DNA of 26,357 nucleotides from Bacilli bacterium. GTDB lineage: Bacteria > Bacillota_I > Bacilli_A > RF39 > UBA660. The stretch's first letter is position 1. Each line of letters opens with the position of its first letter. Shown here piece by piece: positions 2,719 to 17,634 of the stretch. The translations under genes were made by a program, and so were the position numbers. The stretch lies in NCBI GenBank assembly GCA_045638205.1, contig JAZUAY010000171.1:1-26357 (forward strand). Direction: 5' to 3'. Under the pieces are notes generated by a model. It saw only the letters and a list, made by a program, of their open reading frames with translations, searched no databases and had not been told where the DNA came from.

Positions 2719-3057
2719 ATGAAACATGAAATGAAATTAAATAATGGACCATTTATGAATATAAAAAATGGAACAAAAACAATTGAATTAAGATTAAATG
2801 ATGAAAAAAGACAATTACTAAAAATAAAAGACTTAATTGAATTTACTAATGGAGAAACCTTAGAACAAATGTTAGTTGAAATTGAAAATCTATATCATTA
2901 TTCATCTTTTGATGAGTTATATAAGCATTTTGATAAAGTATCTATGGGATATAAGGAAGATGAGATTGCTGATCCAAAAGATATGGAAGAATATTATTCT
3001 AAAGAAGAACAAAAAAAATACGGGGTGTTAGGAATAGAAGTTAGAAAATTAAAATAG
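2719..3057 (+). CDS. ASCH/PUA-like domain protein (copy 1)
   Basis: MKHEMKL...FMNIKNGTKTIELRLNDEKR...IKDLIEF is the ASCH signature. RBS agaggc. Confidence 0.85.
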   Translation: MKHEMKLNNGPFMNIKNGTKTIELRLNDEKRQLLKIKDLIEFTNGETLEQMLVEIENLYHYSSFDELYKHFDKVSMGYKEDEIADPKDMEEYYSKEEQKKYGVLGIEVRKLK

Positions 3058-3080
3058 TTTAGTTTTTAATTATTTATAGA

Positions 3081-3303
3081 AGGAGTAGATATAAATGAAT
3101 AATAATGAAAATGTTGCTAAAACCAATATCAACTGGTTGATATTGATTTAGTCTAAGTTTCATTCAAACTCCTATAAAATAAAGAAAAAACAAGTATATG
3201 CTTGTTACATAATTTAATAAAAATATATAGAAATAATTATAAAAATAACTAAAAAAGCATCAAAAATGGCATAGTATTTGATACTTGGTATTGACGGTTA
3301 AAG
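3081..3303 (+). repeat. Junction J1: rbgA 5' remnant (MNNNENVAKTNINW) + S1 + type-A leader + S2
   Basis: RBS aggag 3081, ATG 3095, TGG 3134-3136. S1 TTGATATTGATTTAGTCTAAG at 3137, S2 TTGGTATTGACGGTTAAAG at 3285. Confidence 0.9.
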
Positions 3304-3365
3304 AGGTGTAAGTATGAAAATATATGGTATAATATTAATTGTCAGATAAATGAAAGGATGATATT

Positions 3366-3614
3366 ATGAAGAGTGCTGAAGAATTTATGAATGAGTTTAT
3401 GAGTACTTTACATAACATGAAAAAGTATCAGCGAATAGACATTACTAGACCAGAAACATATTCCGGAGATTTTGATAAAGTTCATGATGCATTTGATATT
3501 GAAAAAAATGTAGTTGCTACAGTTAAAGCTGAAGAAATATCTAATGTTGTTGCAGATTCACCTAAATTATTAAGACTTACCAATAAAAAAAATAATTTAT
3601 CAATTGAATCGTAA
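3366..3614 (+). CDS. Hypothetical 82-aa protein (copy 1)
   Basis: ORF with RBS aaagga and upstream TGgTATAAT. Near-identical copy at 6273-6521 (2 aa differences). Confidence 0.7.
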   Translation: MKSAEEFMNEFMSTLHNMKKYQRIDITRPETYSGDFDKVHDAFDIEKNVVATVKAEEISNVVADSPKLLRLTNKKNNLSIES

Positions 3615-3633
3615 GATTAAGATATTGCGCTTT
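3606..3633. repeat. 28-bp 11-6-11 imperfect palindromic site (family 2)
   Basis: GAATCGTAAGA-TTAAGA-TATTGCGCTTT. It overlaps the stop codon of the 82-aa gene. Confidence 0.75.
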
Positions 3634-3747
3634 GCCATATTACCAGGCAATTCTTATGGCTAGCTTGTTGTTTATTTAGTCTAAGGTAAATAATTAATAT
3701 AAAATGGGACGAAACTATACTAAATTTCGCCTTTTTTATGCTATAAT
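3634..3747 (+). repeat. Cassette tail: inverted rbgA PGHMA half-site (X) + S3 + extended -10 promoter
   Basis: GCCATATTACCAGG at 3634 (reverse complement CCT GGT AAT ATG GC). S3 TTGTTGTTTATTTAGTCTAAG at 3665. GCCTTTTTTATGCTATAAT at 3729-3747. Confidence 0.85.
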
Positions 3748-3757
3748 TGAATAGAAA

Positions 3758-3975
3758 TGGAGTGATTCCTATGAATAATAAAACTAATATAAATTGCTTG
3801 AGCATGATTTATCTAACCCCTTTAACAAATCCTTATAAAATAAGGGAAAATTGATAATTTGATCTTACATCTTTTATATAAAAAGTAAGTAAAAATGTAC
3901 AAAAAACACCAAAAATCATTAAAAATGGAGCTTTTTTTATATATTTTTGATAAGGTGATGTTTCCCGCTAACCCC
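3758..3975 (+). repeat. Junction J2: rbgA 5' remnant (MNNKTNINC) + S1 + type-B leader + S2
   Basis: ATG 3771, TGC 3795-3797. S1 TTGAGCATGATTTATCTAACCCC at 3798, CCTTATAAAATAAGG box, S2 GTGATGTTTCCCGCTAACCCC at 3955. Confidence 0.9.
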
Positions 3976-4007
3976 ACCATAAAATAGGGATTTATAAAAT
4001 TATAAGT

Positions 4008-4035
4008 AAATCGTAAAATAGTAATATTACGATCT
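4008..4035. repeat. 28-bp 11-6-11 palindromic site (family 2) upstream of the ABC-F gene
   Basis: AAATCGTAAAA-TAGTAA-TATTACGATCT. The arms are 9/11 complementary. Confidence 0.75.
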
Positions 4036-4210
4036 TTTGTCAATATAAAAAATATAGTATAATATATATGACATATAAGTGCACAATTAATAATTCTACA
4101 TATAATTAAAGAAAGAGAAAAGTCAGTGAATTATATTTTTTAGCAATTGACAAATATTGAAAAATTTAAAATTTAATGATAGTATAAAAAACTAAATAAG
4201 AGGTGATAGC

Positions 4211-5704
4211 ATGTCAACAATAAGTGTAAGCAATCTTACATTTGGTTACGACGGGGGATACACTAACATCTTTGAAAACGTTTCATTTAATATAGATTCT
4301 AATTGGAAATTAGGATTTGTTGGAAGAAATGGTAGAGGTAAAACAACTTTTTTAAATTTATTACTAGGTAAATATGAATATCAAGGAACAATTAAATCGG
4401 ATTTGATATTTGATTATTTTCCATTTGAAATAAAAGATAAATCAAAAAATTCTTATGAAATAGCAGAAGAAATAGTACCGTATTTTGAAACTTGGAAATT
4501 AAATTGTGAGATTTCTCAATTAGGAATGGACTTAAGCATATTAGAAAGATCATTTGAAAATCTAAGTAAAGGAGAACAAACACGAGTTTTACTTGGATTG
4601 ATGTTTTCTAAAGATAATAACTTTTTACTTATAGATGAACCTACTAATCACTTAGATATTGAGGCAAGAAAAATTGTCGCTGATTATTTAAATAGTAAAA
4701 AAGGGTTTATTTTAGTTTCTCATGATAGGCGCTTTTTGGATAATTGCATAGATCATGTTTTATCCATTAATAAAACTAATATTGAAGTTCAAAAAGGGAA
4801 TTTTAGTTCATGGTGGGAGAATAAGCAAAGACAAGATAATTTTGAGTTAAATCAAAATGAAAAATTAAAAGGTGAAATATCTAGATTAGAAAAATCTGCT
4901 AGACAAACAGCAAATTGGTCTGATAAAGTAGAAAAAAGTAAATATAATATTAAACAAGGTGTTGTACCAGATAAAGGTTATATTGGACATAAAGCTGCTA
5001 AAATGATGAAAAGATCTTTAGTTGCACGCAATCATAAAGAAAAAGCAATTGAGGAAAAATCAAAATTATTAAAAAATATAGAAACAATGGAAGAACTAAA
5101 AATTAGTCCAACAATTTATAGGAGTAATAAACTGTTGGAAGTATCAAATCTTAGTGTTAATTATGGAGATAGAGATTTATTTGATAAAATTAGTTTTTCA
5201 GTAAATAGGGGAGATAGAATTGAACTAAAAGGAAAAAATGGTTCTGGAAAATCTAGTTTAATCAAATTGCTTTTAGGGCAAAAAATAAAGTACAATGGTG
5301 AACTGTATTTACCCAATGATTTAAAAATTTCATATGTTTCACAAGATACGTCTTATTTAAAAGGAAATTTAAAAGATTTTATAATGGATAATAATATAGA
5401 TGCCACATTATTTATGTCAATATTAAGAAAATTAGATTTTGATAGAAAAGAATTTGATAGAAATATTGAAAGTTATAGTGAAGGCCAAAAAAAGAAAGTA
5501 TTATTAGCTAAGAGCTTATCTGAACAGGCTGATTTATATGTATGGGATGAACCGTTAAATTATATAGATATTTATTCAAGACTACAGATTGAAAATTTAA
5601 TTTTAGATTATAATCCTACGATGATATTTGTGGAACATGATGAAACATTCTCAGATAAGATTGCAACAGATAAAATAGAGATAAAAAACACATCGCAATA
5701 TTAA
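4211..5704 (+). CDS. lsa: Lsa-family ABC-F ribosomal protection ATPase
   Basis: Two ABC domains (GRNGRGKTT, GKNGSGKSS; LLIDEPTNHLD, YVWDEPLNYID). The N-terminus (NIFENVSFNIDSNWKLGFVGRNGRGKTTFLNLLLGKY) and linker (DKGYIGHKAAKMMKR) closely resemble Lsa(E)/Lsa(B) as recalled. The allele cannot be assigned without a search. Confidence 0.8.
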   Translation: MSTISVSNLTFGYDGGYTNIFENVSFNIDSNWKLGFVGRNGRGKTTFLNLLLGKYEYQGTIKSDLIFDYFPFEIKDKSKNSYEIAEEIVPYFETWKLNCEISQLGMDLSILERSFENLSKGEQTRVLLGLMFSKDNNFLLIDEPTNHLDIEARKIVADYLNSKKGFILVSHDRRFLDNCIDHVLSINKTNIEVQKGNFSSWWENKQRQDNFELNQNEKLKGEISRLEKSARQTANWSDKVEKSKYNIKQGVVPDKGYIGHKAAKMMKRSLVARNHKEKAIEEKSKLLKNIETMEELKISPTIYRSNKLLEVSNLSVNYGDRDLFDKISFSVNRGDRIELKGKNGSGKSSLIKLLLGQKIKYNGELYLPNDLKISYVSQDTSYLKGNLKDFIMDNNIDATLFMSILRKLDFDRKEFDRNIESYSEGQKKKVLLAKSLSEQADLYVWDEPLNYIDIYSRLQIENLILDYNPTMIFVEHDETFSDKIATDKIEIKNTSQY

Positions 5705-5753
5705 GATATTAGGAATTGAGAAATCAGTTCCTTTTTTAGTAATCTTACGATGT
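5690..5753. repeat. 64-bp composite: family-2 half-sites in inverted orientation around a terminator-like hairpin
   Basis: ACATCGCAATA-TTAAGA...AGGAATTGA-GAAA-TCAGTTCCT-TTTTT...TAGTAA-TCTTACGATGT. It overlaps the ABC-F stop codon. Confidence 0.8.
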
Positions 5754-5801
5754 ATTAAAAAATAATAAAGTATGATATAATACCAATAGGTTGGTGATAT
5801 T

Positions 5802-6140
5802 ATGAAACATGAAATGAAATTAAATAATGGTCCTTTTATGAATATTAAAAATGGTACTAAGACAATTGAGTTAAGATTAAATGATGAGAAAAGGAAATTG
5901 TTAAAAATAAAAGATTTAATTGAATTTACTAATAGGGAAACATTGGAACAATTGTTAGTAGAAATAGAAAATCTATATCATTATCCTTCATTTGAAGAAT
6001 TATATAAACACTTTGATAAAGTTGCTATGGGATATAAGGAAGATGAAGAAGCTGATCCAAAAGACATGGAAGAATATTATTCAAAAGAAGAACAAGAAAA
6101 ATATGGAGTTTTAGGAATTGAAATAAAAAAAGTGAGATAA
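5802..6140 (+). CDS. ASCH/PUA-like domain protein (copy 2)
   Basis: 100/112 aa identical to 2719-3057 (counted by eye). Confidence 0.85.
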   Translation: MKHEMKLNNGPFMNIKNGTKTIELRLNDEKRKLLKIKDLIEFTNRETLEQLLVEIENLYHYPSFEELYKHFDKVAMGYKEDEEADPKDMEEYYSKEEQEKYGVLGIEIKKVR

Positions 6141-6211
6141 TCGTAAGATTAAGATATTCCAGTACATTAAGATGAGAAATTATCTCATCTTTTTTAGTAA
6201 TATTGCGATGT
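6138..6211. repeat. 74-bp composite: family-2 half-sites in inverted orientation around a terminator-like hairpin
   Basis: TAATCGTAAGA-TTAAGA...AAGATGAGA-AATTA-TCTCATCTT-TTT...TAGTAA-TATTGCGATGT. Confidence 0.8.
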
Positions 6212-6272
6212 AATTAAATAATGAAAATATATGGTATAATATTAATTGTCAGATAAATGAAAGGATGATATT

Positions 6273-6521
6273 ATGAAGAGTGCTGAAGAATTTATGAATG
6301 AGTTTATGAGTACTTTAGATAACATGAAAAAGTATCAGGGAATAGACATTACTAGACCAGAAACATATTCTGGAGATTTTGATAAAGTTCATGATGCATT
6401 TGACATTGAAAAAAATGTAGTTGCTACAGTTAAAGCTGAAGAAATATCTAATGTTGTTGCAGATTCACCTAAATTATTAAGACTTACCAATAAAAAAAAT
6501 AATTTATCAATTGAATCGTAA
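6273..6521 (+). CDS. Hypothetical 82-aa protein (copy 2)
   Basis: Part of a duplication of ~3315-3800 at ~6222-6707. Confidence 0.7.
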   Translation: MKSAEEFMNEFMSTLDNMKKYQGIDITRPETYSGDFDKVHDAFDIEKNVVATVKAEEISNVVADSPKLLRLTNKKNNLSIES

Positions 6522-6540
6522 GATTAAGATATTGCGATTT
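6513..6540. repeat. 28-bp 11-6-11 palindromic site (family 2)
   Basis: GAATCGTAAGA-TTAAGA-TATTGCGATTT, directly abutting X at 6541. Confidence 0.75.
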
Positions 6541-6654
6541 GCCATATGACCATGCAATTCTTATGGCTAGCTTGGTGTTTATTTAGTCTAAGGTAAATAA
6601 TTAATATAAAATGGGAGGAAACTATATAAAATTTCGTCTTTTTTATGCTATAAT
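6541..6654 (+). repeat. Cassette tail: X + S3 + extended -10 promoter
   Basis: GCCATATGACCATG at 6541. S3 TTGGTGTTTATTTAGTCTAAG at 6572. TGcTATAAT ending at 6654. Confidence 0.85.
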
Positions 6655-6664
6655 TGAATAGAAA

Positions 6665-6885
6665 TGGAGTGATTACTATGGATAATAAAACCAATATTAA
6701 CTGGTTGATTTCAATTTAATTAAGAGCACTCCTAAAACCATATAATATAAGGGAAAATGTAAAAATACATCTTACATGTTTTTAATAAAAATAGTTAAAA
6801 AATACTAAAAAATAGCAAAATAAGTTAAAAATAAGTAAATTTTTACTAAGAAGTTGCAAGGTGATTACAAAAGTTAAGAACATAT
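6665..6885 (+). repeat. Junction J3: rbgA 5' remnant (MDNKTNINW) + S1 + type-B leader + S2
   Basis: ATG 6678, TGG 6702-6704. S1 TTGATTTCAATTTAATTAAGAGCA at 6705, S2 GTGATTACAAAAGTTAAGAACA at 6861. Confidence 0.9.
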
Positions 6886-6902
6886 AAAGAAGAGGTGAAT
6901 TT

Positions 6903-7580
6903 ATGAAATATATAATGCAAAATAATGAATCAAATTATAATGAAGTAATAGCTAATATTATTAATAATAGAAAAAAAGAAATATTTTCTTTTTTTAACAG
7001 TAAGGAAATTGATTTACCAGTTACTATATATGTTTATAATAGCATTGAAGAATTAGTTAATGGAATGAGAAAAAGAGGATACAAAAATGATCCTGACTAT
7101 ATGTGTGCATGCCAAAAAGATGAAGATAATTCTTTAAATTATTTTGAACCTAGGGATAATCCAGGTGAAAAGGAATGGTCAAAAGAAGAGTATAAGAATG
7201 TAATATTTCATGAATTAATTCATTGTATACAATTTAATCTATTTGGAACTACTCTTGAATGGATAAATGAAGGAATAGCTAAATATTTAGATGGTACATA
7301 TTCAAAAGGAATTAAATGGTTATTAGATAATTATATAAATAATAATCCGATTCCTAATCAAGATGAGATAGAGAATGAATTTGGTATGCATGAATATGAT
7401 AGTTATGATTATGCATATTTAATGGTAAGTTATATAATTGATTATTATGGTAAAGATACATTGATTGATTTATTGAAAAATAAAGAAAAATATGAAACTA
7501 TAAAAAAAGATTTATTAATAAAATCAATTGATTATTATAATATGAAATATAATGAAGAAAGTTTTTTTAAAAGTATATAA
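6903..7580 (+). CDS. Putative zinc metallopeptidase (HExxH, gluzincin/peptidase MA-like)
   Basis: IFHELIHCIQ followed by WINEGIAKYL. Confidence 0.7.
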   Translation: MKYIMQNNESNYNEVIANIINNRKKEIFSFFNSKEIDLPVTIYVYNSIEELVNGMRKRGYKNDPDYMCACQKDEDNSLNYFEPRDNPGEKEWSKEEYKNVIFHELIHCIQFNLFGTTLEWINEGIAKYLDGTYSKGIKWLLDNYINNNPIPNQDEIENEFGMHEYDSYDYAYLMVSYIIDYYGKDTLIDLLKNKEKYETIKKDLLIKSIDYYNMKYNEESFFKSI

Positions 7581-7607
7581 AACTTTCTTTTTATTTATAA
7601 TTATTAA

Positions 7608-7723
7608 TTGGCCATATGACCTGGTGAGAATTTTAAAATAACTGATTACGCAATATTTAAGAACATATAAATGACATAAATTTAGACAAATTAGTACAAA
7701 ATCTGCCTTTTTTATGCTATAAT
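7608..7723 (+). repeat. Cassette tail: X + S3 + extended -10 promoter
   Basis: The reverse complement of 7608-7624 is CCAGGTCATATGGCCAA, a 16/17 match to rbgA 17654-17670. S3 TGATTACGCAATATTTAAGAACA at 7643. GCCTTTTTTATGCTATAAT at 7705-7723. Confidence 0.9.
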
Positions 7724-7756
7724 TTTAATGATTTTAAATCGAGAAAGTGATGTTAC

Positions 7757-8191
7757 ATGGAATTAAATGAATATATGAATCAAGATGTTTTTAATCCAAA
7801 ATATTTATTTCACGGAACAGCTCATGAAATAGATAAATTAGAATTAAGACAATCAACTGATAATGAAAATAAAGATAATGAAGACAATGCAATATTTTTA
7901 ACTAGTTCAATCTATACTGCAGCGGCTTATGCTTTTAGTAGACGATTGAAAGAACAAAATGAGAATTATTCATTTTCTATGAATAATAATGGAGAATTAC
8001 CAGCAATGGTATTTGAAGTAGAAAATTTACCAGATGATTTATGTGGTTATATTTATATTTTTGAAAAAAGTGAAGATATGATTAAAGATAATCACGAGTT
8101 CACAACTCAATATAGATGCTATCATGATTTAACACCACAAAAAGTTATTAAAGTTAATTATAGAGATTTTGAAGAATTTTTCAGCAGATAA
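7757..8191 (+). CDS. Hypothetical protein, possible ADP-ribosyltransferase-like fold
   Basis: YLFHGT...AIFLTSSIYTAAAYA resembles the H-G-T / Y(F)-x-T strands of ART-fold proteins. This is motif-level evidence only. Confidence 0.45.
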   Translation: MELNEYMNQDVFNPKYLFHGTAHEIDKLELRQSTDNENKDNEDNAIFLTSSIYTAAAYAFSRRLKEQNENYSFSMNNNGELPAMVFEVENLPDDLCGYIYIFEKSEDMIKDNHEFTTQYRCYHDLTPQKVIKVNYRDFEEFFSR

Positions 8192-8217
8192 AATTAAACT
8201 AAAAAAATATAGATTTA

Positions 8218-8385
8218 AAGGAGTTGATTCAAATGAATGAAAATAAAACTAATATAAACTGGTTGTAGTGATTAACATCTTTCATGTTATGATAAAATAT
8301 AGTTAAATTTAATAAAAAAAGATCAAAAATGATTAAAATATGTTAAATATTATGTAGGAATTAAGGTATTGATTACGATACAGTA
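8218..8385 (+). repeat. Junction J4: rbgA 5' remnant (MNENKTNINW) + shortened leader + S2
   Basis: AAGGAGTTGATTCAA-ATG 8233, TGG 8260-8262. The leader lacks ~50 bp including the CCTTAT box. S2 TTGATTACGATAC at 8369. Confidence 0.85.
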
Positions 8386-8412
8386 ACTAATTCGTGATGG
8401 GAGGAAATTATA

Positions 8413-8583
8413 GTGAATATAGTTGAAAAAGTGCAGTTTTTAAAGAATTATAAGAAAAATTTAGAAACAACTGCAAAACTTGTTGAAAGATTTAAATTAA
8501 AGGGCGATTTAACTCGTAGTATTGATGATACTATAGGGTATTTAGAAAAAGAAAAAATAAAAATTAAATATAAAGTAAAGTGA
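8413..8583 (+). CDS. Small hypothetical protein, 56 aa (MNIVEKVQFLKNYKKNLETTAKLVERFKLKGDLTRSIDDTIGYLEKEKIKIKYKVK)
   Basis: GTG start with GGAGG RBS. It fills the cargo slot between J4 and J5 and is below the ORF-track cutoff. Confidence 0.6.
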   Translation: MNIVEKVQFLKNYKKNLETTAKLVERFKLKGDLTRSIDDTIGYLEKEKIKIKYKVK

Positions 8584-8587
8584 AATT

Positions 8588-8811
8588 AAGGAGTTGATTC
8601 AAATGAATGAAAATAAAACTAATATAAATTGCTTGATTACGATTTATTTAACCCCTTTAAGAACTTCTTTATTTACAAGGCTTTGTGAGAATTAGCATCT
8701 TGCATGTTTTATATAAAAATATGTTAAATAGATAAAAATTAGTAAAAGATGACTATTTTTAGTTAAAAATGTTGTAGGAATTAATGAGGTGATTACACCT
8801 TTTAACCCCTA
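8588..8811 (+). repeat. Junction J5: rbgA 5' remnant (MNENKTNINC) + S1 + type-B leader + S2
   Basis: ATG 8603, TGC 8630-8632. S1 TTGATTACGATTTATTTAACCCCT at 8633, S2 GTGATTACACCTTTTAACCCCT at 8789. Confidence 0.9.
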
Positions 8812-8832
8812 GATAAAAATGAGGTGAAGTGT

Positions 8833-9405
8833 ATGTCCAAAATATCTAAAAATATTAAAATGCTAGATATATTATCATCTGGGAAAATATATAGTTGTAA
8901 GAAACTAGCAGAAATGTTAGAAGTTAGTCCAAGAACAGTTAGACAATATAAAGATGAATTAGAAAAAGAAGGATTATATATTGAAAACATAATGGGTAAA
9001 AATGGTGGATATAGACTTTGCTCTAAAGTTGAAATACCTTCTATTTTGTTTAATAAAAATGATATAGATAAAATTAATTCAATAATAGATAAATTATCCG
9101 ATGATGATAAAAATAAATTAGAGAATATTAAAGAAAAAATTAATACTTACTGTAGATTAGTAAGTGATAGAGATAACATAAATATTGAAGATAAAAATAA
9201 AATAGATATAATACAAAATGCAATTAATAATAAGAAAAAAATTACTATAGAATACTATAGTAAAGGAATTAAAAAATCAAGAGATATATTGCCAATTCAA
9301 ATATATGTATATGAAAATATGATTATGGTAGTTGTTCATTATTCGGATGATCCAAGTGACATAAGACATTTAAATTTAAAAAGAATCGAAAAAATAATTA
9401 TATAG
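8833..9405 (+). CDS. HTH (wHTH) + WYL domain transcriptional regulator, short form
   Basis: N-terminal LAEMLEVSPRTVRQYKDELEKEG...GKNGGYRL (YafY/PafB-type HTH). C-terminal AINNKKKITIEYYS...RDILP...IRHLNLKRIEKI (WYL). RBS gaggtg before ATG 8833. Confidence 0.8.
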   Translation: MSKISKNIKMLDILSSGKIYSCKKLAEMLEVSPRTVRQYKDELEKEGLYIENIMGKNGGYRLCSKVEIPSILFNKNDIDKINSIIDKLSDDDKNKLENIKEKINTYCRLVSDRDNINIEDKNKIDIIQNAINNKKKITIEYYSKGIKKSRDILPIQIYVYENMIMVVVHYSDDPSDIRHLNLKRIEKIII

Positions 9406-9551
9406 CAAAAGTACTTCCTACATTAGTGTTTATAATGAGTATAGAACATCTGGTAAAAGTCAATAGGTAATCGGCAGTTTTTTTGGAATAGTTTACTGCC
9501 TTATCAACAAAATTATTGCACACTAAAACGATTTTAGTATAAACTAAAATT

Positions 9552-9583
9552 ATTGATTCGCTATTTATAAATAGCGAATCAAT
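9552..9583. terminator. Perfect 32-bp palindrome at the transposase stop
   Basis: ATTGATTCGCTATTTA|TAAATAGCGAATCAAT. Confidence 0.65.
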
Positions 9584-10859
9584 CGTTCTTTGAATTTTGA
9601 ACCGAGTCAATTGGTTTGTAATATTGATTTTTTCGCAGCAATCCAAAAATCAATCTTGCAAGTTTACGAGCAGATAAAACGAGTGCACGTTTATGTTGAT
9701 GTTTAGAAACTTCCTTAAATTTAAGATCATAATAATCTTTAATAAAAGGAAAGTTTTGTCTAACACAAGAAGCAGTAGCTTCAACTAAATAATATCGTAA
9801 ATATTTATTAGACTTTTTAGAAGATTTCTTATCCTGAGAATCGAATTCTCCAGACTGATTTCTTTTCCAATAAAGTCCAGAATATTTAGCAATTTTTGAG
9901 TTATGAGGAAATCTTTCAATATTACCAATTTCAGCCATAATACCAGCAGCATAGACTTTACCAATACCACGAATAGAAAGTAAGATATTATAGGTATTGG
10001 AATCAAGTCCTAAAGCAGTTGATAAAATAGCTTTATCAATATTCTTAAGTTGTTTTTGATAAAATTTAATAGTATTTAAAGAAGAAGCAATGGCAATATT
10101 GATTGGTTCATAAGCAGTTTGATCTAATCTGTAAGAAGCATGCATGGCTTTATTTAAAGTAGTAATCTTATCATCTACATTAGAAATATGATTTTTACTT
10201 TTTTCAGAAATAAAGTTAATTAAATCTTCTACAGATGAAGATGCAATAACATCTGGAGATACAAATTCTTCTAGAAAAGCGGAAGATGTAGCACCAAATA
10301 GGTCAGAAAAAGGTATATCATTTTTGTTACAAGAAACTAATCCAGAAAAAGATAAATATAAATTAGTTAAAATATAAGTCTTTTCTTTTATTAAGTTTTT
10401 ACAAATATGATATCTTTGTCTAGTAAGACGTTGAAGTGCAATGTATTGAGAACCTTTAAATGGATATAAAGCTTTAGTTCTGCCGACTCTTCCATAGTCA
10501 GCAAGAATATAAGCATCAATACCATCTTCTTTTTCTAAATCATGAAAACTTTTCTTATATTTATCAAAATCACAAGCATTGATTTGATAAACTTCAGTAT
10601 GAAAATTATTTAAATATTCATTAGAAGAAAGATAACAAGCAGGATGAAAAGAATACATGCCAGTAGATTCCATAACAATGATAATTTTATCAAAGAATAA
10701 TGTATCTTCAATATCTTTAATTTTATTAATAACCATATCGTTTCCTTCTGGATTATTGGGAAACTTAAGGTTAAAATAAATATGTTGATCAAAATTCATA
10801 ACGCAAAACTGATTACCTTTAAGACCTACATCAACACCAATGAACAAAGAGTTTTGCAT
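9579..10859 (-). CDS. IS110-family (DEDD) transposase/recombinase
   Basis: N-terminal FIGVDVG and VMESTGMY (RuvC-like DEDD), KEDGIDA..LA. C-terminal SIRGIGKVYAAGIMAEIGNIERF...YSGL...QSG...SNKYLRYYLVEA. ATG 10859 has RBS aggtgg. Confidence 0.95.
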   Translation of the reverse strand: MQNSLFIGVDVGLKGNQFCVMNFDQHIYFNLKFPNNPEGNDMVINKIKDIEDTLFFDKIIIVMESTGMYSFHPACYLSSNEYLNNFHTEVYQINACDFDKYKKSFHDLEKEDGIDAYILADYGRVGRTKALYPFKGSQYIALQRLTRQRYHICKNLIKEKTYILTNLYLSFSGLVSCNKNDIPFSDLFGATSSAFLEEFVSPDVIASSSVEDLINFISEKSKNHISNVDDKITTLNKAMHASYRLDQTAYEPINIAIASSLNTIKFYQKQLKNIDKAILSTALGLDSNTYNILLSIRGIGKVYAAGIMAEIGNIERFPHNSKIAKYSGLYWKRNQSGEFDSQDKKSSKKSNKYLRYYLVEATASCVRQNFPFIKDYYDLKFKEVSKHQHKRALVLSARKLARLIFGLLRKNQYYKPIDSVQNSKND

Positions 10860-11250
10860 AAGTATCACCACCTTTCGATAAAATATTTTGTGAAACATAA
10901 TAAACTACAGATACCCTTGCTTAAAAGTTTGACAACAACCTCGTTATAAGAATACATCTTTTGTTTAAGGATAATGTGCTGCGATTAAACTTAAAAAGAG
11001 AAACATCATCTGAGTTAGAAGGATGATAACTCATAAGTAGGGAAACATTCTAAACTAGTAAACATCATAAAGAGTTACAGGAGGGTTAAGAATAGATCCT
11101 AGTTATTATATTTCAATAAAATATAATAACACAAGGGTAAAAATAATCCATAGTTTTTACTATTTTTACTTATAAAAATAGAATAAATAAAAATAGTTAA
11201 TATAAGTGAAAAAATCACTTACAAAAACTATTATACGAGGAGGTATTTTT

Positions 11251-11601
11251 ATGTTAGATTTAGATCATATTGCAATTACCGTAAAAGATTTGAATGAATC
11301 TATTGTTTTTTATAAAAAACTGGGTTATGAATTATTAGAAAGATTTAGTGATGATGAATATAATTGGGCTACATTAAAGTTAAATAACCATTCATTAGAA
11401 TTATTTCAAATAACAAATGATAAGGAAAAACCAATTAATCATATTGCATATAGCTATGATAGTGATGAAGAAGTACTAGATTTAATTAAGCAATTAGGTT
11501 ATAAGAAAGAAAACATAGATATATTTTATGGTGATTTAAATAGAAAGAGTTTCTTTATTGAAGATAAAAATGGTAAATCAATTCAATTAATAAAGAAGTA
11601 G
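11251..11601 (+). CDS. VOC/glyoxalase family protein
   Basis: LDHIAITVKDLNESIVFYKKLG...LELFQ...INHIAY...FFIEDKNGKSIQL. RBS gaggagg before ATG 11251. Confidence 0.85.
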   Translation: MLDLDHIAITVKDLNESIVFYKKLGYELLERFSDDEYNWATLKLNNHSLELFQITNDKEKPINHIAYSYDSDEEVLDLIKQLGYKKENIDIFYGDLNRKSFFIEDKNGKSIQLIKK

Positions 11602-11713
11602 CCATATGGCCAGGTAATGTTATGATAAAAATTGATTACACTTAATTTAACCTATAATAAATGACATAAATTTAGACAGATTAGTACAAAATCTGCCTTT
11701 TTTATGCTATAAT
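11600..11713 (+). repeat. Cassette tail: X + S3 + extended -10 promoter
   Basis: The reverse complement of 11600-11614 is CCT GGC CAT ATG GCT (PGHMA, fully synonymous with rbgA). S3 TGATTACACTTAATTTAACC at 11633. GCCTTTTTTATGCTATAAT at 11695-11713. Confidence 0.9.
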
Positions 11714-11729
11714 TTTATTAATTTTATAA

Positions 11730-11895
11730 AAGGAGTTGAGTGGGATGAACGAAAATAAAACAAATATCAATTGGTTGGCTTGTATTTATGACGCACATCA
11801 CTTAAACCCATATAAAATGGGAACTTTTAAGAAATGAGATCTTGCAAGTTTTAATAAAAAAAGTAGTAAAAAATGAAAAAATAGATTAAAAATTA
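11730..11895 (+). repeat. Junction J6: rbgA 5' remnant (MNENKTNINW) + S1 + leader truncated before S2
   Basis: ATG 11745, TGG 11772-11774, CCCATATAAAATGGG box, GATCTTGCAAG box. The leader then runs into a BRO fragment. Confidence 0.85.
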
Positions 11896-11901
11896 CTCAT
11901 T

Positions 11902-12171
11902 GAAATAAGAAGTATTTGGAATTCTGAAAAAGAAGAATATTATTTTAGTGTAGTTGATGTTATTGCTGCATTAACTGATAATGATTATGATAAATCTAGA
12001 AATTATTGGAAATGGTTAAAAACTAGACTAAAAGATGAAGGCAGTGAATTGGTTAGTGATACTAACCAGTTGAAAATGAAAGCTAAAGATGGAAAAATGA
12101 GAGAGACAGATACTCTTGATACAGAAGGAATATTTAGATTAATAGAATCTGTTCCATCCAGTAAAGCGGAA
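11902..12171 (+). pseudogene. BRO-N domain fragment lacking a start
   Basis: EIRSIWNSEKEEYYFSVVDVIAALTD...RNYWKWLKTRLKDEGSE...LKMKAKDGKMRETD...RLIESVPSSKAE. Homologous to the N-half of 19507-20205. Confidence 0.85.
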
Positions 12172-12473
12172 GTGTTTTGTATAAAATGACATTGAATAAA
12201 AATATACAAGATATACTTTATTTTAAAGGAATTGTTGATTTTTATAAAGATTATGTAAAACTAGATATTACTGATAAAAAAGATAATCAAAACAATTGGA
12301 ATGTTATAGTATCAGTTTTAAGATAATCAAAGTGTCGTGTTCTTGTAATCATATAATTCGATAAATAAGTATGATTGTAAAAGTAAAAATATTAATTTTG
12401 ATTAGTTGCAACGTAAGGTATGTTTAATTACATATCTTTTTTTGTTGTGTAAAAAAGAAAGGAGAAATGATAT

Positions 12474-12821
12474 ATGGAATTAAATTATGCAATATTTAGA
12501 AGTGAACCTATTATGACTATACCTGATTTAGCACAAATAGGATCACATAATAAAAGGGAAAAGAAAGTGTATCAATCAAATAAAGATATTAAAATAGAAT
12601 TAAGTAAAAACAACATAGAACTTGTTCCTTTAAATGTTAAATATGTAAAAGGTTTTGATGAACTAACTAAAGAATATAAAAAAGAACACGAAGAAAGAAT
12701 GAAAACTGAACGAGCTGATAGAAAGAAAAGATACCATGAAATGTTAAATAGTTCTAAAAATGTTGTTGCTGATGAATTAGTTATGACTGCTTCACATAAT
12801 TTCTTGCTAGGTGAAATTTGA
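12474..12821 (+). pseudogene. Truncated MobV/Pre (Mob_Pre) relaxase N-terminus
   Basis: YAIFR...SHNKR...SNKDIKIELSKNNIELV...VVADELVMTAS resembles MOBV motifs I and II. It ends before the HxDExxPHxH motif. Confidence 0.65.
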
Positions 12822-12846
12822 CATTCATGCCTTTTTATGCTAGAAT
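12818..12846 (+). promoter_or_regulatory. Sigma70-type promoter related to the cassette-tail promoter
   Basis: TTGACA-17 bp-TAGAAT with a TG extension. The spacer GCCTTTTTATGC resembles the tail promoter. Confidence 0.6.
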
Positions 12847-12909
12847 ATAAGCCAATTTCAGCGAGAAGTATGTATTACTTAAATTATTATTTTCAATAAA
12901 TTATGGGGG

Positions 12910-13650
12910 TTGATTATAATGAAAAAGAATAAAAATATTGAAATGCGTATATATGAATTATTAGGGGTTAAAGTTTTTAGAAAAATGGCATTTGGTTTGC
13001 GTGATATATTAGCATTTCCATTAACTATTAGAATGAGTAAAGAAGAGAGACATAACTTTCTATATAATAGAGAAGGTAATTATAATTTAGGAAAAGTAAA
13101 AAGTTTAGAGGACGTTAAAAAATTTAAAAAACAATTGTTTATAAATTCAGGTATTCATGTATGGGCATTATCAGTTTGCCTTCCTAACTTTTTAAAAGTA
13201 ATTGGTGGTACTGCATCTTTATCTACAGCTATAATAACTTTAACTTGTATAGGTATAAATCTATACTGTATTATGCTACAAAGATATAATGGTATTAGAA
13301 TTACTCAACTTATTGAAAAAATGACTCCAAGATATGAAAGACAAAAAGATGCAATTAAAGAAGAACTAAGAAAAGAAGATTCATTACTTTTAGAACATAC
13401 ATATAAAATTGTAGATAAAAAAGAAAGAGAAACTAGTATAACTTTTGATGATTTAATTGCTAATGCTAATATTGAGCAACTTAAACAATATCGTGAGTAT
13501 TTAGCACATTTTCAAAATATTAATCAATTAATACAAGAAAATGATATCTCTGCTGAACATCAAGTAGTTGTAAGTATGCCAATGGAAAAACATAAAACAC
13601 TTAAATTGGAATTAAAACCTAATAAACATAACAACGGTGCTATTAATTAG
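12910..13650 (+). CDS. Membrane protein, possibly CrtO-like (glycosyl-4,4'-diaponeurosporenoate acyltransferase family)
   Basis: YELLGVKVFRKM...IHVWAL, a hydrophobic segment, then INLYCIMLQRYNGIRI. Motif recall only; the start codon is uncertain. Confidence 0.45.
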   Translation: MIIMKKNKNIEMRIYELLGVKVFRKMAFGLRDILAFPLTIRMSKEERHNFLYNREGNYNLGKVKSLEDVKKFKKQLFINSGIHVWALSVCLPNFLKVIGGTASLSTAIITLTCIGINLYCIMLQRYNGIRITQLIEKMTPRYERQKDAIKEELRKEDSLLLEHTYKIVDKKERETSITFDDLIANANIEQLKQYREYLAHFQNINQLIQENDISAEHQVVVSMPMEKHKTLKLELKPNKHNNGAIN

Positions 13651-13726
13651 CACTTTTGTTTTATAAAAAACTTATTTGATGACAAATAAGTAACACACTA
13701 CCAAGTCGGCATTTTGCCAACTAGGA

Positions 13727-14287
13727 TTGTGTGCCAAAGGAGAGCCTTTTAAGATGTGGTTAGCATCATTAGGTAAAGAAAGAATTGATGAGGTATTTGA
13801 TCCTGAAATAGCAGTTAATAGGGCTGTAGAATATTATCGCAAAAGAGGTTATGATGATAAATGGATTAAATCAAGATTAACTGGGATAGTTGATAGATTT
13901 AAATTAACTGATGTATGGAAAGAATCTGGAATTACAAAAGATTATGAATATGGAATTTTAACTAATGAAATATATAAATCATGGTCAGGAATGAAGGCAA
14001 GTGAATATAAAGCATACAAAGGTCTTAGAAAAGAATCATTAAGAGATAATATGACAGATATTGAAGTTGCATTAACGGATTTGGGTGAAATAGCAACAAG
14101 AGAACTAGCAAAAGAACATAAACCATATGGATTAGAACAAAATAAAAGAATAGCACGACGAGGTGGTAATATAGCAAAAATAACTAGAGATAATTTAGAA
14201 AAAGAATTAGGTAGAACTGTAATCAGTAATAAGAATTCATTAAATTATGAATATATAGATGAAAAATTATTAGAAGAAAAGAATTAG
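13727..14287 (+). pseudogene. BRO-family gene, C-terminal half
   Basis: KGEPFKMWLASLGKERIDEVFDPEIAV...KESLRDNMTDIEVALTDLGEIATRELAK. Homologous to the C-half of 19507-20357. The N-half is absent here. Confidence 0.85.
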
Positions 14288-14289
14288 AT

Positions 14290-14344
14290 AAATAACATAA
14301 ATTTAGACAGATTAGTACAAAATCTGCCTTTTTTATGCTATAAT
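14290..14344 (+). repeat. Partial cassette tail (promoter part only; no X or S3)
   Basis: AAATAACATAAATTTAGACAGATTAGTACAAAATCTGCCTTTTTTATGCTATAAT matches the tails at 7670-7723 and 11660-11713. Confidence 0.85.
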
Positions 14345-14359
14345 TTTAATGATTTTAAA

Positions 14360-14582
14360 AAGGAGTTGATCCAAATGAACGAAGAAAAAGGGTTAAATAA
14401 AACCGTAATCAACTGGTTGGTATTGATTTAGTCAAAGTATTTGAGAAGCTCCTATAAAATAAGGATTAAACAAGTATAAGCTTGTTACATAATATAATAA
14501 AAATATATAAAATAATGATAAAAATAGCTAAAAAAGTATCAAAAATAACATACTATTTGATACTTGGTATTGACGGTTAAAC
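14360..14582 (+). repeat. Junction J7: rbgA 5' remnant (MNEEKGLNKTVINW) + S1 + type-A leader + S2
   Basis: ATG 14375, TGG 14414-14416. S1 TTGGTATTGATTTAGTCAAAG at 14417, S2 TTGGTATTGACGGTTAAAC at 14564. Confidence 0.9.
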
Positions 14583-14605
14583 TTTTAAAAAACGAGGTGA
14601 TTTAT

Positions 14606-15184
14606 ATGAGTAAGATAGCAATTGATATTGATAATACAATTTGTAATACAAGTGATTTCTTTGGACCAATCGCAGAGAACTATGATAGAAATGTATTGCA
14701 TAAAAATAATGATATTAATTATGATAAAACAGTTCCTAGAAGTGATAATTGGACAAAAGAAGAACTTGCTTATTTTGTAGAAAACTATTTTAATAAAGAA
14801 GCTATAAATATTCCTATTAAAAAAGATGCTGTTATTTACATTAACAAACTTAAAGAATTAGGATTTGAAATAGTATTCATTACAAATAGAGGAATTAAAG
14901 AAGATGATCATTCTGATTTAATAGTTCCTGAATATTTAGAAAAAAATAATATTCCTTATGATAGTATAATTACTAAATCAAATGATAAATATATGTATTT
15001 AGAGGACTGTGCTTATTTTATAGATGATGCAATTCGTAATTGCGAACAAGCATTAGAAAAATCAAATGTTAAAGTAATCATGATGAGAACAAATAAAACA
15101 AAGAATTATGTTAATGAAGATATTTTAATAGTTAATAGCTGGGAAGAAATATATAACTATATAAAGCAATATAAAAGGAGGTAA
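14606..15184 (+). CDS. HAD-superfamily hydrolase (5'-nucleotidase-like)
   Basis: IAIDIDNTI (DxDxT), FITNRG, FIDDA. RBS gaggtg before ATG 14606. Confidence 0.8.
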   Translation: MSKIAIDIDNTICNTSDFFGPIAENYDRNVLHKNNDINYDKTVPRSDNWTKEELAYFVENYFNKEAINIPIKKDAVIYINKLKELGFEIVFITNRGIKEDDHSDLIVPEYLEKNNIPYDSIITKSNDKYMYLEDCAYFIDDAIRNCEQALEKSNVKVIMMRTNKTKNYVNEDILIVNSWEEIYNYIKQYKRR

Positions 15185-15245
15185 TAATCATGAACGATAA
15201 TAAAACTAGTATAAACTGGTTGATTATGACAGTTAAGAACATTGT
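15177..15245 (+). repeat. Junction J8: rbgA 5' remnant (MNDNKTSINW) with collapsed leader (S1/S2 hybrid)
   Basis: ATG 15190, TGG 15217-15219, then TTGATTATGACAGTTAAGAACATT running straight into the cargo RBS. Confidence 0.85.
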
Positions 15246-15263
15246 AAAAATGAGGTGGTCATA

Positions 15264-15806
15264 ATGGAAAATCTTGGTTTAGAAAGAGGATATTTAGAAT
15301 TACATGATTATAGAAAAGATTATCCTTCGATTTATGAAAAGGCAAAAGAAGAATTGTTAGATATTTATAAAGATAGAATTAAATATATTGACCATGTTGG
15401 GAGTACTAGTATAAAAGGAATTAAATCTAAACCTATTATTGATATCAATATTCAAACAGATGATTTAGATGATTTTAAAGAGTATACTGAATCTACTGTT
15501 GAGGGTGACATTTATACTGTAAAAAAAGAACCAACTTTAGGTGGAGATTATTTAATTAGAAAAGAAGAAGATGGAAAAGTAAAAGCATTTATACATGTCT
15601 ATAAAACTGGTGATATGAATGGCATAACTTCGATTATGTTTAGGGATTATATGAATTCACATGAAGATGAAGCGAAAAGATATGAAGCTTTAAAAATGGA
15701 ATTATATGATAAGTATAAGGATAACAGAAAAGAATATACACATGGAAAAGATAAGTATATTAAAGAAATAATAGCATTAGCCATGAAAGAAAAAAATAAA
15801 ATTTAG
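15264..15806 (+). CDS. GrpB-family nucleotidyltransferase-fold protein
   Basis: IDHVGSTSIKGIKSKPIIDINI...FRDYMNSH...YEALKMEL...YTHGKDKYI. Confidence 0.85.
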   Translation: MENLGLERGYLELHDYRKDYPSIYEKAKEELLDIYKDRIKYIDHVGSTSIKGIKSKPIIDINIQTDDLDDFKEYTESTVEGDIYTVKKEPTLGGDYLIRKEEDGKVKAFIHVYKTGDMNGITSIMFRDYMNSHEDEAKRYEALKMELYDKYKDNRKEYTHGKDKYIKEIIALAMKEKNKI

Positions 15807-15834
15807 GACATTGTAATTCTTTACTACTATATTT

Positions 15835-15948
15835 AGCCATATGACCATGCAACTAATTTAAAAAATTTGATTACATAATATTTAAGAACATATAATTGTT
15901 ATAAAATTAGACAGATTAGTACAAAAACTGCCTTTTTTATGCTATAAT
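15835..15948 (+). repeat. Cassette tail: X + S3 + extended -10 promoter
   Basis: GCCATATGACCATG at 15836. S3 TGATTACATAATATTTAAGAACA at 15868. GCCTTTTTTATGCTATAAT at 15930-15948. Confidence 0.9.
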
Positions 15949-15964
15949 TTTAATGATTTTAAAA

Positions 15965-16187
15965 AAGAGTTGATCCAAATGAATGAAAATAAAACAAATA
16001 TAAATTGGTTGATAACAATTTAGTCAAGACTACTCCTAAATCCTTATAAAATAAGGGGAAACTGAAAAATAGGTCTTGCATGTTTATGTCAAAATATATT
16101 AAAAATTGATGAAAATAAGTTAAAAAAGAGTAATTTTAAGTAAAAATTGCCTAGGAATTAATATAGTGAGAACTGATAGTCAAGACC
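15965..16187 (+). repeat. Junction J9: rbgA 5' remnant (MNENKTNINW) + S1 + type-B leader + S2
   Basis: ATG 15979, TGG 16006-16008. S1 TTGATAACAATTTAGTCAAGAC at 16009, S2 GTGAGAACTGATAGTCAAGAC at 16166. Confidence 0.9.
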
Positions 16188-16209
16188 AGCAAAAAAAGAG
16201 GTGATTATT

Positions 16210-16668
16210 TTGAAACGTAGTGCAGGTATTTTAGTTTATAAAATTGAGAAAAATGATATAAAAGTCTTACTTTGTCATTTTGGTGGACCATATTGGGAAA
16301 ATACTGATATTGGTGGATGGACTCTTTCAAAAGGTGAGGTTAGTAAAGGCGAAAAAGTATTAGAAACTGCGAAGAGAGAATTTATAGAGGAAACAAATTT
16401 AAATTTAACTGCTCCGATTGATTATCTTGGAACAAAGAAAATTAGTAGAAAAAAGTTAGCAATAATGTTTTATACTAATTCTGATTTTGAACTTTCTAAT
16501 TGTAAAAGTAATACTTTTGAACTTGAATTTCCAAAAGGTTCTGGTAATATAAAGTCATTTCCTGAAATGGATAAATATGAATGGATGAATCTTAATGATG
16601 CTAAGAAAAAAATAATAAAAAATCAGTTGTATTTTTTAAATAAATTAGAAGAAAAAATAGCCAGGTAA
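16210..16668 (+). CDS. NUDIX hydrolase
   Basis: SAGILVYK...HFGGPYW...GGWTLSKGEVSKGEKVLETAKREFIEETN. TTG start at 16210 after RBS agaggtg. Confidence 0.85.
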   Translation: MKRSAGILVYKIEKNDIKVLLCHFGGPYWENTDIGGWTLSKGEVSKGEKVLETAKREFIEETNLNLTAPIDYLGTKKISRKKLAIMFYTNSDFELSNCKSNTFELEFPKGSGNIKSFPEMDKYEWMNLNDAKKKIIKNQLYFLNKLEEKIAR

Positions 16669-16876
16669 TACTCATGAATGAAAATAAAACTAATATAAAC
16701 TGGTTGATTACGATTTATCCAAGAATAGTAGAAAACCTATATAAAATAAGGAATTGTGAGATATAACATCTTGCACGTTTTATATAAAAATATGTTAAAA
16801 CACGCAAAAATTAGTAAAAAATGGACATTTTTGATGTAAAAAGTGGTAGGAATTATGAAGGTGATTTCGCCACCTA
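16660..16876 (+). repeat. Junction J10: rbgA 5' remnant (MNENKTNINW) + S1 + type-B leader + S2
   Basis: ATG 16674, TGG 16701-16703. S1 TTGATTACGATTTATCCAAG at 16704, S2 GTGATTTCG at 16861. Confidence 0.9.
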
Positions 16877-16911
16877 ATAATAAGAAATAATTTGAATACG
16901 GAGGTGATACT

Positions 16912-17634
16912 ATGATTAATAAACCCATTATAGGAGTGGTAAGTAAACCAAATATTTTTTGCAGTGATAAATTATTTACCTCACAATTTGTTTATGATGG
17001 TGTTAGAAATGCAGTATTAAAAAATGGAGCACTTGTTATAGGAATACTACCAACAAAAATATCTACTGTATTTTGTGATTCAGATGAAGTAGTAAATAAG
17101 TCTGATTTTTCACAATCTGAATTAGAGGATTTATATTCATTAATTGATAGATGCGATGGTATAATAATTCAAGGTGGTTTATCTAGTGATGCTTATGAAA
17201 TAAAAGCAGCTAAGTATGCTATAGATAATGATATACCAATACTTGGAATATGTGCAGGATTTAATAATATTATTAGAGCAATGGGTGGTGAAGTTTTTTG
17301 TATTAATAATACAATTCATAATACTGAAGATGGTTCAATAGTTCACAAAAATATAGTTAAAGAAAATACTTTGTTATATGATATTTTAAAAAAGAAAGAA
17401 GTAGATGTTAATAGTATTCACACAATGTTTGCTAATGAAGAAAATATTAAAAATATGATTATTTCAGCGTATTCTGATGATGGCTATGTTGAAGCAGTAG
17501 AAATAAAAGATAAAAAGTTTTGTTTGGGTGTTAAATGGCATCCGGAATTAATGTTAGAAAATGAACAAATGAATAATATATTTAAATATTTTATTGATGT
17601 ATGCAAAGGAGTTGATCCAAATGAACGAAAATAA
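16912..17634 (+). CDS. Gamma-glutamyl-gamma-aminobutyrate hydrolase family (peptidase C26, class I glutamine amidotransferase-like)
   Basis: CDGIIIQGG, PILGICAGFN (nucleophile Cys), VNSIH, GVKWHPE. Confidence 0.9.
   Translation: MINKPIIGVVSKPNIFCSDKLFTSQFVYDGVRNAVLKNGALVIGILPTKISTVFCDSDEVVNKSDFSQSELEDLYSLIDRCDGIIIQGGLSSDAYEIKAAKYAIDNDIPILGICAGFNNIIRAMGGEVFCINNTIHNTEDGSIVHKNIVKENTLLYDILKKKEVDVNSIHTMFANEENIKNMIISAYSDDGYVEAVEIKDKKFCLGVKWHPELMLENEQMNNIFKYFIDVCKGVDPNERK

Follow-up and report, generated by a model that had tools for sequence, protein, structure and literature searches.

The 26,357-nt stretch analysed here (the window) is a whole contig (JAZUAY010000171.1) of a metagenome-assembled genome (MAG; 1.24 Mb, 26.6% G+C, 94% complete, 199 contigs) whose relatives are uncultured gut and rumen Bacilli. 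It holds a head-to-tail stack of small units before rbgA, the essential gene for ribosome biogenesis GTPase A (290 aa; 17621–18493, + strand); the stack extends from at least 3.1 kb to 17.6 kb and runs off the contig start. We propose, with a probability of about three in four, that the junctions between these units are attL-type sites of a large serine recombinase (LSR) that inserts circular gene cassettes at codon 10 of rbgA. The proposal builds on the anatomy of the array, on a switch in linkage between positions −6 and +1 of the junction, on a dyad around a shared TG, and on LSR genes found at the site in relatives; from these we infer that an LSR is the enzyme and that its cut is staggered by 2 bp.

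The units are 0.4–3 kb long, mostly with a single cargo gene, and follow one plan. The head at the start of each is N-TTGATTACGATTTA, in most cases with a conserved non-coding leader of 150–200 nt behind it. One or a few cargo genes come next, and the tail consists of a TATAAT-type box, a ribosome-binding site (RBS), and a repeat of rbgA codons 1 to 10 that ends in ATH-AAY-TG. This last motif, which belongs to the Ile-Asn-Trp codons, is present at all ten junctions of the window (J1–J10) and at the live rbgA start, where the RBS and the first 10 codons come from the last cassette. The live attachment site (17642–17664, + strand, T of TG at 17648) reads ATAAAT-TG-GTATCCAGG (Ile-Asn-Trp-Tyr-Pro-Gly). 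Positions are numbered such that TG is −2/−1 and the third base of the Trp codon is +1.

For a larger sample, a profile of the leader only (+18 to +170) was searched over all fetched low-GC loci, and the core was then read upstream of each match. This search returned 85 distinct junctions in MAGs of related gut Bacilli, 83 of them with the ATH-AAY-TG anchor; the TG dinucleotide is kept in 83 of the 85, in 10 of 10 window junctions, and in the live rbgA. In scans with sequence patterns, about half of the matches on genome contigs and 115 of 120 metagenome matches were chance occurrences in unrelated, GC-richer DNA, and were dropped by context. Among the 83 junctions, positions −5, −4, −2, and −1 are invariant, and the Ile-Asn-Trp codon string that makes up the left arm varies at its synonymous positions (−6: A39/C31/T12; −3: C54/T27). 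The base at +1 is G69/C6/A4/T4, and +2 to +15 are conserved.

Comparison of discordant pairs, i.e. junction pairs with similar right but different left flanks versus the converse, with pairs differing on both sides as background, located the exchange point. Positions −12 to −6 track the upstream cassette: the fraction of pairs with the same base is 0.60–1.00 when the left flanks are similar versus 0.30–0.39, the background level, when the right flanks are similar (at −10: 0.31 right-similar, 1.00 left-similar, and 0.39 both-different; at −6: 0.33, 0.70, and 0.34, respectively). Positions +1 to +16 track the downstream cassette, with fractions at +1 of 0.93 right-similar, 0.64 left-similar, and 0.69 both-different, and at +6 to +10 of 0.84–0.95 right-similar versus 0.42–0.67 left-similar. 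This test supersedes the first pairwise and nearest-neighbour linkage tests, which were underpowered at +1 (p=0.31 and 0.047) and confounded by junctions inherited whole. The pattern across the sampled junctions supports an exchange between −6 and +1, with TG as the last shared pair, that would need no homology beyond TG. An earlier note on this DNA had placed the exchange at the boundary between a left arm and a spacer, with little homology in the spacer, and the linkage switch bears this out. A 2-bp stagger at TG would fit the switch, although the linkage data themselves place the exchange only between −6 and +1.

The base at +1 points to the partner that supplies it. J2 and J5 carry TGC where the other junctions have TGG, as the earlier note had seen, and its suggestion that the C came with the incoming DNA holds in the larger sample. 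C occupies +1 in 6 of 7 independent heads of the type TTGAGCATGATTTA + tctaacccc (from the window, one MAG, and metagenome contigs) versus 4 of 81 other junctions (p=2.6e-6), and the TTGAGCATGATTTA-class heads with C sit behind at least 5 different rbgA-start alleles. A second head class, TTGATACCGATTTA, has TGC in both of its two occurrences, again with different left alleles. The C of J5 is itself uninformative: in other genomes, the junctions closest to it on the right-hand side carry G. Intact rbgA has TGG in 306 of 401 family genomes and a non-G base in one (1/307), compared with 14 of 83 stranded junctions (p=1.9e-9). Together, the TTGAGCATGATTTA-class linkage and the near-constant TGG of intact rbgA argue that the head of the incoming cassette supplies the last base of the Trp codon. 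The single exception is in genome G133 (L178:3143–4021, contig C21), where the sole rbgA spans the full length (292 aa, with 47% identity to the rbgA of the window), encodes INCYPGHM with TGT, and lies directly downstream of two tandem LSR genes. The TGT may be either a tolerated allele or a consensus error. Ile-Asn-Cys thus does occur in one apparently intact allele, but at about 1 in 300 it leaves the argument from the +1 base standing.

The symmetry of the core likewise centres on TG. When 1560 arm/spacer arrangements were ranked, the top one was 6-2-6, in which −8 to −3 pair with +1 to +6 around TG (ATCAAC-TG-GTTGAT; score 0.77). This dyad is perfect in 15 of the 83 junctions and in J1 of the window, and the symmetry is confined to the inner 6 bp. 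LSRs exchange strands across 2 bp, with half-sites arranged as a dyad about this centre; the linkage result and the top-ranked symmetry axis both fit this habit of the family.

The earlier note had instead read the junctions as an inverted pair of arms around an 8-bp spacer and, on this basis, as the core site of a tyrosine recombinase. Its best example is exact: J9 is TAAATTG-GTTGATAA-CAATTTA at 16001–16022 with 0 mismatches (7/7), and the sequences it gave for J5 (8624–8647) and J10 (16695–16718) are those of the window, as is that of the live rbgA site, which shares the left arm, continues with GTATCCAG, and has no right arm (1/7). The 7-8-7 arrangement also scores well above background (0.66 versus 0.29, sd 0.11). 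However, it does not hold throughout: the note had quoted three of the better-scoring junctions out of ten, and the arrangement ranks sixth of the 1560. Mean complementarity is 4.0/7 over the ten window junctions, with 0–3 of 7 in J1, J4, J7, and J8, and 4.64/7 over the 83 leader-found junctions, where it is perfect in 2. The symmetry of the arms weakens in the larger alignment without vanishing. The left arm drifts away from complementarity at synonymous positions (at −3, C exceeds T), and a loose 7-8-7 pattern (at most 3 mismatches) is not enriched across the window (19 occurrences versus 15.0 expected, sd 4.2).

LSR genes recur at the site in relatives. In a genome of the same genus (G005), the gene that ends 44 nt before rbgA, the last in a unit opening with a standard junction and leader, encodes a protein of 411 aa with Resolvase, Recombinase, and Zn_ribbon_recom domains. 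Among 151 family genomes, seven of the ten best homologues of this protein adjoin rbgA or a junction, whereas its weaker homologues are ordinary integrases of phages or integrative and conjugative elements (ICEs) that are not at rbgA or junctions. Across at least 11 related loci, 11 distinct LSRs take up one of three positions: 37–162 nt upstream of the rbgA Trp codon, 93–98 nt upstream of a junction or, as single-gene cassettes, ∼390 nt downstream. Among 110 open reading frames (ORFs) of at least 240 aa in 40 loci picked by the junction motif alone, there were 5 Recombinase, 4 Resolvase, and 4 Zn_ribbon_recom matches, and Phage_integrase was absent from the families with at least two members. 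The 26 genes directly upstream of rbgA include 6 serine recombinases and no Phage_integrase, a count biased by the fetching of several loci via their recombinase. The array LSR is nearest to LSRs of the TnpX/TP901-1/SprA type; its catalytic domain is nearest to that of TnpX of Tn4451 (2mhc, E 1.9e-28), and the serine motif YxRLSRD is kept.

A tyrosine recombinase acting on 7–8-bp inverted arms around an 8-bp spacer, with only the left-boundary exchange productive and spacer homology unneeded (as for IntI or Tn916/Tn5252-type integrases), would account for several of the same observations. The inferred exchange point is the left boundary of the 7-8-7 arrangement, the linkage at −3 is mixed, and the direct half-site repeats in the leader can be read as arm-type sites. 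A precedent comes from streptococci: Tn5253 integrates after nucleotide 20 of the rbgA coding sequence, just past the Trp codon, with an 11-bp conserved core, and restores the gene start; the repeat as a whole is retained at the left side, and strands are exchanged at the right-hand end of the repeat (PMC8571831, PMC6079316). Its polarity is alike, with attL equal to attB and attR equal to attTn (PMC6079316, PMC8571831, PMC4701971, PMC9652813). Its excision needs its own int-xis pair (PMC6079316), and elements that integrate in rbgA, Tn5253 among them, are listed as tyrosine-integrase elements (PMC4701971, PMC9652813).

Set against this precedent, no tyrosine recombinase was detected among the 110 large ORFs of the 40 array loci or the 26 genes upstream of rbgA, LSRs recur at the site, and the strongest dyad is centred on TG and not on the edge of an 8-bp spacer. 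Genome G011 has an array, yet its only tyrosine recombinases are two of Xer size (300–308 aa) on other contigs. The genome of the window has 5 PF00589 matches, all on other contigs, two of them Xer-sized, and the ORFs of the window comprise no tyrosine or serine recombinase, no int/xis, and no conjugation genes. We therefore consider a tyrosine recombinase unlikely. The earlier note is thus supported in part: it appears to have found the right crossover but probably the wrong enzyme family, and 6-2-6 around TG is the better symmetry axis. Capture of the XerCD/dif type was considered separately and rejected; the Xer-like gene near topA in relatives reflects conserved Bacillota gene order, and the junction does not appear dif-like.

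What the window has in place of an integrase is a gene for an IS110-family DEDD transposase (9579–10898, − strand), inside the J5–J6 unit between a WYL/HTH gene and a glyoxalase gene. IS110/IS1111 elements are sequence-specific, and every cassette opens with a conserved, possibly structured non-coding leader of 150–200 nt. A DEDD transposase of the bridge/seeker RNA kind, or some other transposase, might hence move the cassettes, with the leader as its guide-bearing end. This is very improbable in our estimation. The gene is on the strand opposite to the array and inside one unit, with no sign of building the array; the three IS110-family genes of the genome are not beside junctions, the two others being of other types on contigs C14 and C178; and three of five array-bearing relatives have no IS110 match. 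An Rfam scan of the whole window (E≤1) matched no RNA family to the leaders. Moreover, the cassettes bring a functional replacement of the start of their target gene, which is typical of integrase attachment sites.

Equally remote, in our view, is an origin of the array without dedicated site-specific recombination, through duplication, homologous recombination between the rbgA-start copies, or metagenome mis-assembly. The contig does come from a fragmented MAG, and a 300-nt repeat of 99% identity (3314–3613 and 6221–6520) could mislead an assembler. However, a base-for-base identical junction connects unrelated cargo genes in dozens of MAGs assembled independently in different studies, left and right flank identities assort independently (correlation 0.02), and the breakpoint in the discordant-pair test is sharp.

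Several observations weigh against an LSR as the enzyme. The TG-centred dyad is just 6 bp long and lies in AT-rich DNA. Position −3 is linked equally to both flanks (0.60 and 0.64 versus 0.47), a mixed linkage that confines the exchange to the interval −5 to −1 rather than to TG exactly. The tyrosine integrase of Tn5253 uses the same rbgA position in streptococci (PMC8571831, PMC6079316, PMC4701971), so that family can use the site. The window has no LSR of the array clade, and the LSR match in its own genome is weak (E 8e-22; the assembly is 94% complete); genome G031 has a junction but no serine recombinase match. Close LSR homologues are present in about one-tenth of the family genomes searched, compared with leader matches in about half, which implies that most arrays would rely on an enzyme in trans or now lost. 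Nevertheless, the recurrence of LSRs at rbgA and junctions, with a symmetry axis that coincides with the exchange interval, leads us to favour an LSR.

A model of insertion by such an LSR can be outlined. The cassette circle would carry attP, made of its tail (promoter, RBS, and first 10 rbgA codons ending in ATH-AAY-TG) joined to its head (N-TTGATTACGATTTA and leader). From what is known of the family, the LSR would cut at the common TG in both attP and its chromosomal partner, ATH-AAY-TG-GTATCCAGG, and swap the halves. The former rbgA start would be stranded before the new cassette, whose own copy would become the working start. As only the 2-bp TG must match in this model, +1 at the stranded junction would come from the incoming cassette and be free to be C, A, or T, while the working rbgA would keep its own G. 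As the left halves of attP and attB are alike, the stranded junction would resemble attP and the live junction attB, and given such attP-like and attB-like junctions, the integrase alone should be able to delete or re-insert cassettes.

The ten junctions of the window, all on the + strand and here given from −8 to +15, differ in their right halves and leaders. J1 (3128–3150, T of TG at 3134) is ATCAAC-TG-GTTGAT, a perfect 6-2-6 with a 7-8-7 score of 3/7. J2 (3789–3811, T at 3795; 5/7) has its TGC at 3795–3797, followed by TTGAGCATGATTTA and a tctaacccc leader (‘class D’). J3 (6696–6718, T at 6702; 5/7) is ATTAAC-TG-GTTGAT. J4 (8254–8276, T at 8260; 2/7) has a degenerate right half and no leader, and J5 (8624–8646, T at 8630; 6/7) has its TGC at 8630–8632. 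The spacing of J4 and J5 is only 370 nt (8260–8630) with no gene between them, and this unit looks like an empty or decayed cassette. J6 (11766–11788, T at 11772; 4/7) is ATCAAT-TG-GTTGGC, of the TTGGCTTGTATTTA class, and J7 (14408–14430, T at 14414; 3/7) is ATCAAC-TG-GTTGGT with a leader of the same class as J1. J8 (15211–15233, T at 15217; 0/7) is without the ∼155-nt leader. J9 (16000–16022, T at 16006; 7/7) is the sole perfect 7-8-7 in the window, and J10 (16695–16717, T at 16701; 5/7) has the consensus right half TTGATTACGATTTA.

The leader that follows J10 (16703–16911, + strand) exemplifies the conserved form: it begins with the right half-site, after which come a possible short hairpin, CCTATATAAAATAAGG, a promoter-like TTGCAC box, and a second copy resembling the half-site, GGTGATT. 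Each leader ends with such a repeated head half-site (GGTGATTACGACATTTAA-like), in direct orientation and overlapping a Shine-Dalgarno-like AGGTGAT; it is seen at 16855–16875 of the window and, in locus L039, at 12150–12180 and 14140–14165 (− strand). The right half of J8 resembles this second half-site copy (S2), and since leaderless junctions such as J8 (15217) begin with the second type, cassettes may acquire or lose their leader between the two half-site copies. In nearly all leaders a short inverted repeat of the CCTTATAAATAAAGG type is present at +25 to +40 after the junction (e.g. 16731–16746); its stem differs between classes (CCCAT...ATGGG and CCTTT...AAGG), which hints at a conserved hairpin. 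A representative cassette tail (15830–16007, + strand) contains a conserved 134-nt block with TTTTTATGCTATAAT (a −10-like box), an RBS, and the copy of the first 10 rbgA codons ending in TG.

The cargo of the window comprises NUDIX, ASCH, Lsa-like ABC-F, peptidase, WYL, glyoxalase, GrpB, and GATase genes. The ABC-F gene of the J2 unit (4211–5704) is intact and encodes an Lsa-like double-ABC protein of 497 aa; in this commensal of the ruminant gut, the gene is a candidate for resistance by ribosome protection. An ASCH gene with an 82-aa ORF is present twice (2719–3614 and 5802–6521), with 87% identity between the ASCH parts and 99% over 300 nt between the 82-aa parts; this repeat may be either a recent duplication or an assembly hazard. 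Downstream of rbgA lie rnhB, a Bro-N gene (19507–20205), topA, and capsule genes. A second copy of the Bro-N gene, 81–85% identical, lies within the array (11902–11980 and 13727–14293), interrupted by ∼1.75 kb with two genes, for a 115-aa ORF and a CrtO-like acyltransferase; the split points to another type of insertion within a cassette. In genome G031, just upstream of the sole stranded junction, a gene on the − strand (L041 11351–13741) encodes a 796-aa TIR and WD40/beta-propeller protein that looks like defence cargo at the rbgA hot spot.

The array shares features with several known systems. It is similar to the staphylococcal cassette chromosome (SCC/SCCmec; target rlmH, recombinases CcrAB/CcrC) with respect to the probable use of an LSR, one attachment site located at an end of a conserved housekeeping gene, the growth of arrays by tandem accretion with repeated attachment sequences between the units, and the many units without a recombinase of their own. 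However, SCC targets the 3′ end of rlmH, whereas the array targets the 5′ end of rbgA (codon 10), so that promoter, RBS, and first codons have to come with every unit. Array units are also mostly single genes with a promoter-bearing leader, the putative LSR is a 411-aa TnpX-like protein and not a Ccr, and the hosts are uncultured gut Bacilli with small genomes. The resemblance to SCC is one of mechanism, not of membership. Tn5253/Tn5252 ICEs of Streptococcus and Enterococcus use the same gene, at the same position and with the same polarity, but Tn5253 is a 64.5-kb conjugative element with int/xis that is inserted singly, in contrast to the stacked tiny cassettes with serine recombinases at the site described here. 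TnpX of Tn4451/Tn4453 from Clostridium is an LSR with a small circular intermediate and a 2-bp crossover at a GA dinucleotide. It is the closest solved relative of the catalytic domain of the array LSR, but it moves its own transposon to loosely defined targets, whereas the array has one fixed site and many cassettes without a recombinase.

Integrons, including sedentary chromosomal ones and clusters of attC sites lacking integron-integrases (CALINs), are alike in appearance: arrays of promoter-proximal, mostly single-gene cassettes at one site with the newest beside it, many of them without a nearby recombinase, with accessory, defence-like, or resistance-like cargo and little homology at the crossover. 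If an LSR is the enzyme, most arrays would lack a recombinase of their own, as CALINs and ccr-less SCC elements do. In contrast to the array, the integron integrase IntI is a tyrosine recombinase that acts on folded single-stranded attC, an imperfect palindrome (R''-L''...L'-R') at the cassette end with extrahelical bases. Array cassettes appear to end in no such long palindrome but in a promoter, an RBS, and a copy of the rbgA start. The platform lies at the beginning of an essential gene, cassettes have promoter leaders of their own, and a serine recombinase is the likely enzyme. The array is thus SCC-like in mechanism and integron-like in appearance, and a member of neither group. We are evenly divided over a broader reading, in which the system would be a serine-recombinase counterpart of the integron: a capture platform in the first codons of an essential gene, at which one compact integrase, without a directionality factor, would insert, excise, and reshuffle promoter-equipped single-gene cassettes that need to match only at TG. 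The literature searched contained no description of such arrays, which appear to be widespread in gut and rumen Bacilli with small genomes.

Relative to the earlier note, the value of this analysis is mainly corrective, in retaining the crossover while revising the probable enzyme family and the symmetry axis. An exchange point and a likely enzyme class turn a descriptive repeat array into a testable recombination system, and the model predicts which 2 bp must match, to which partner each half-site belongs, and why an essential gene would survive insertion. With its defined natural attB/attP pair, the compact integrase of 411 aa might also find use as a tool. The arrays carry accessory cargo in ruminant gut bacteria, including the Lsa-like ABC-F gene of the window and, if a serine recombinase does build them, they would represent a second, independent route to integron-like gene capture.

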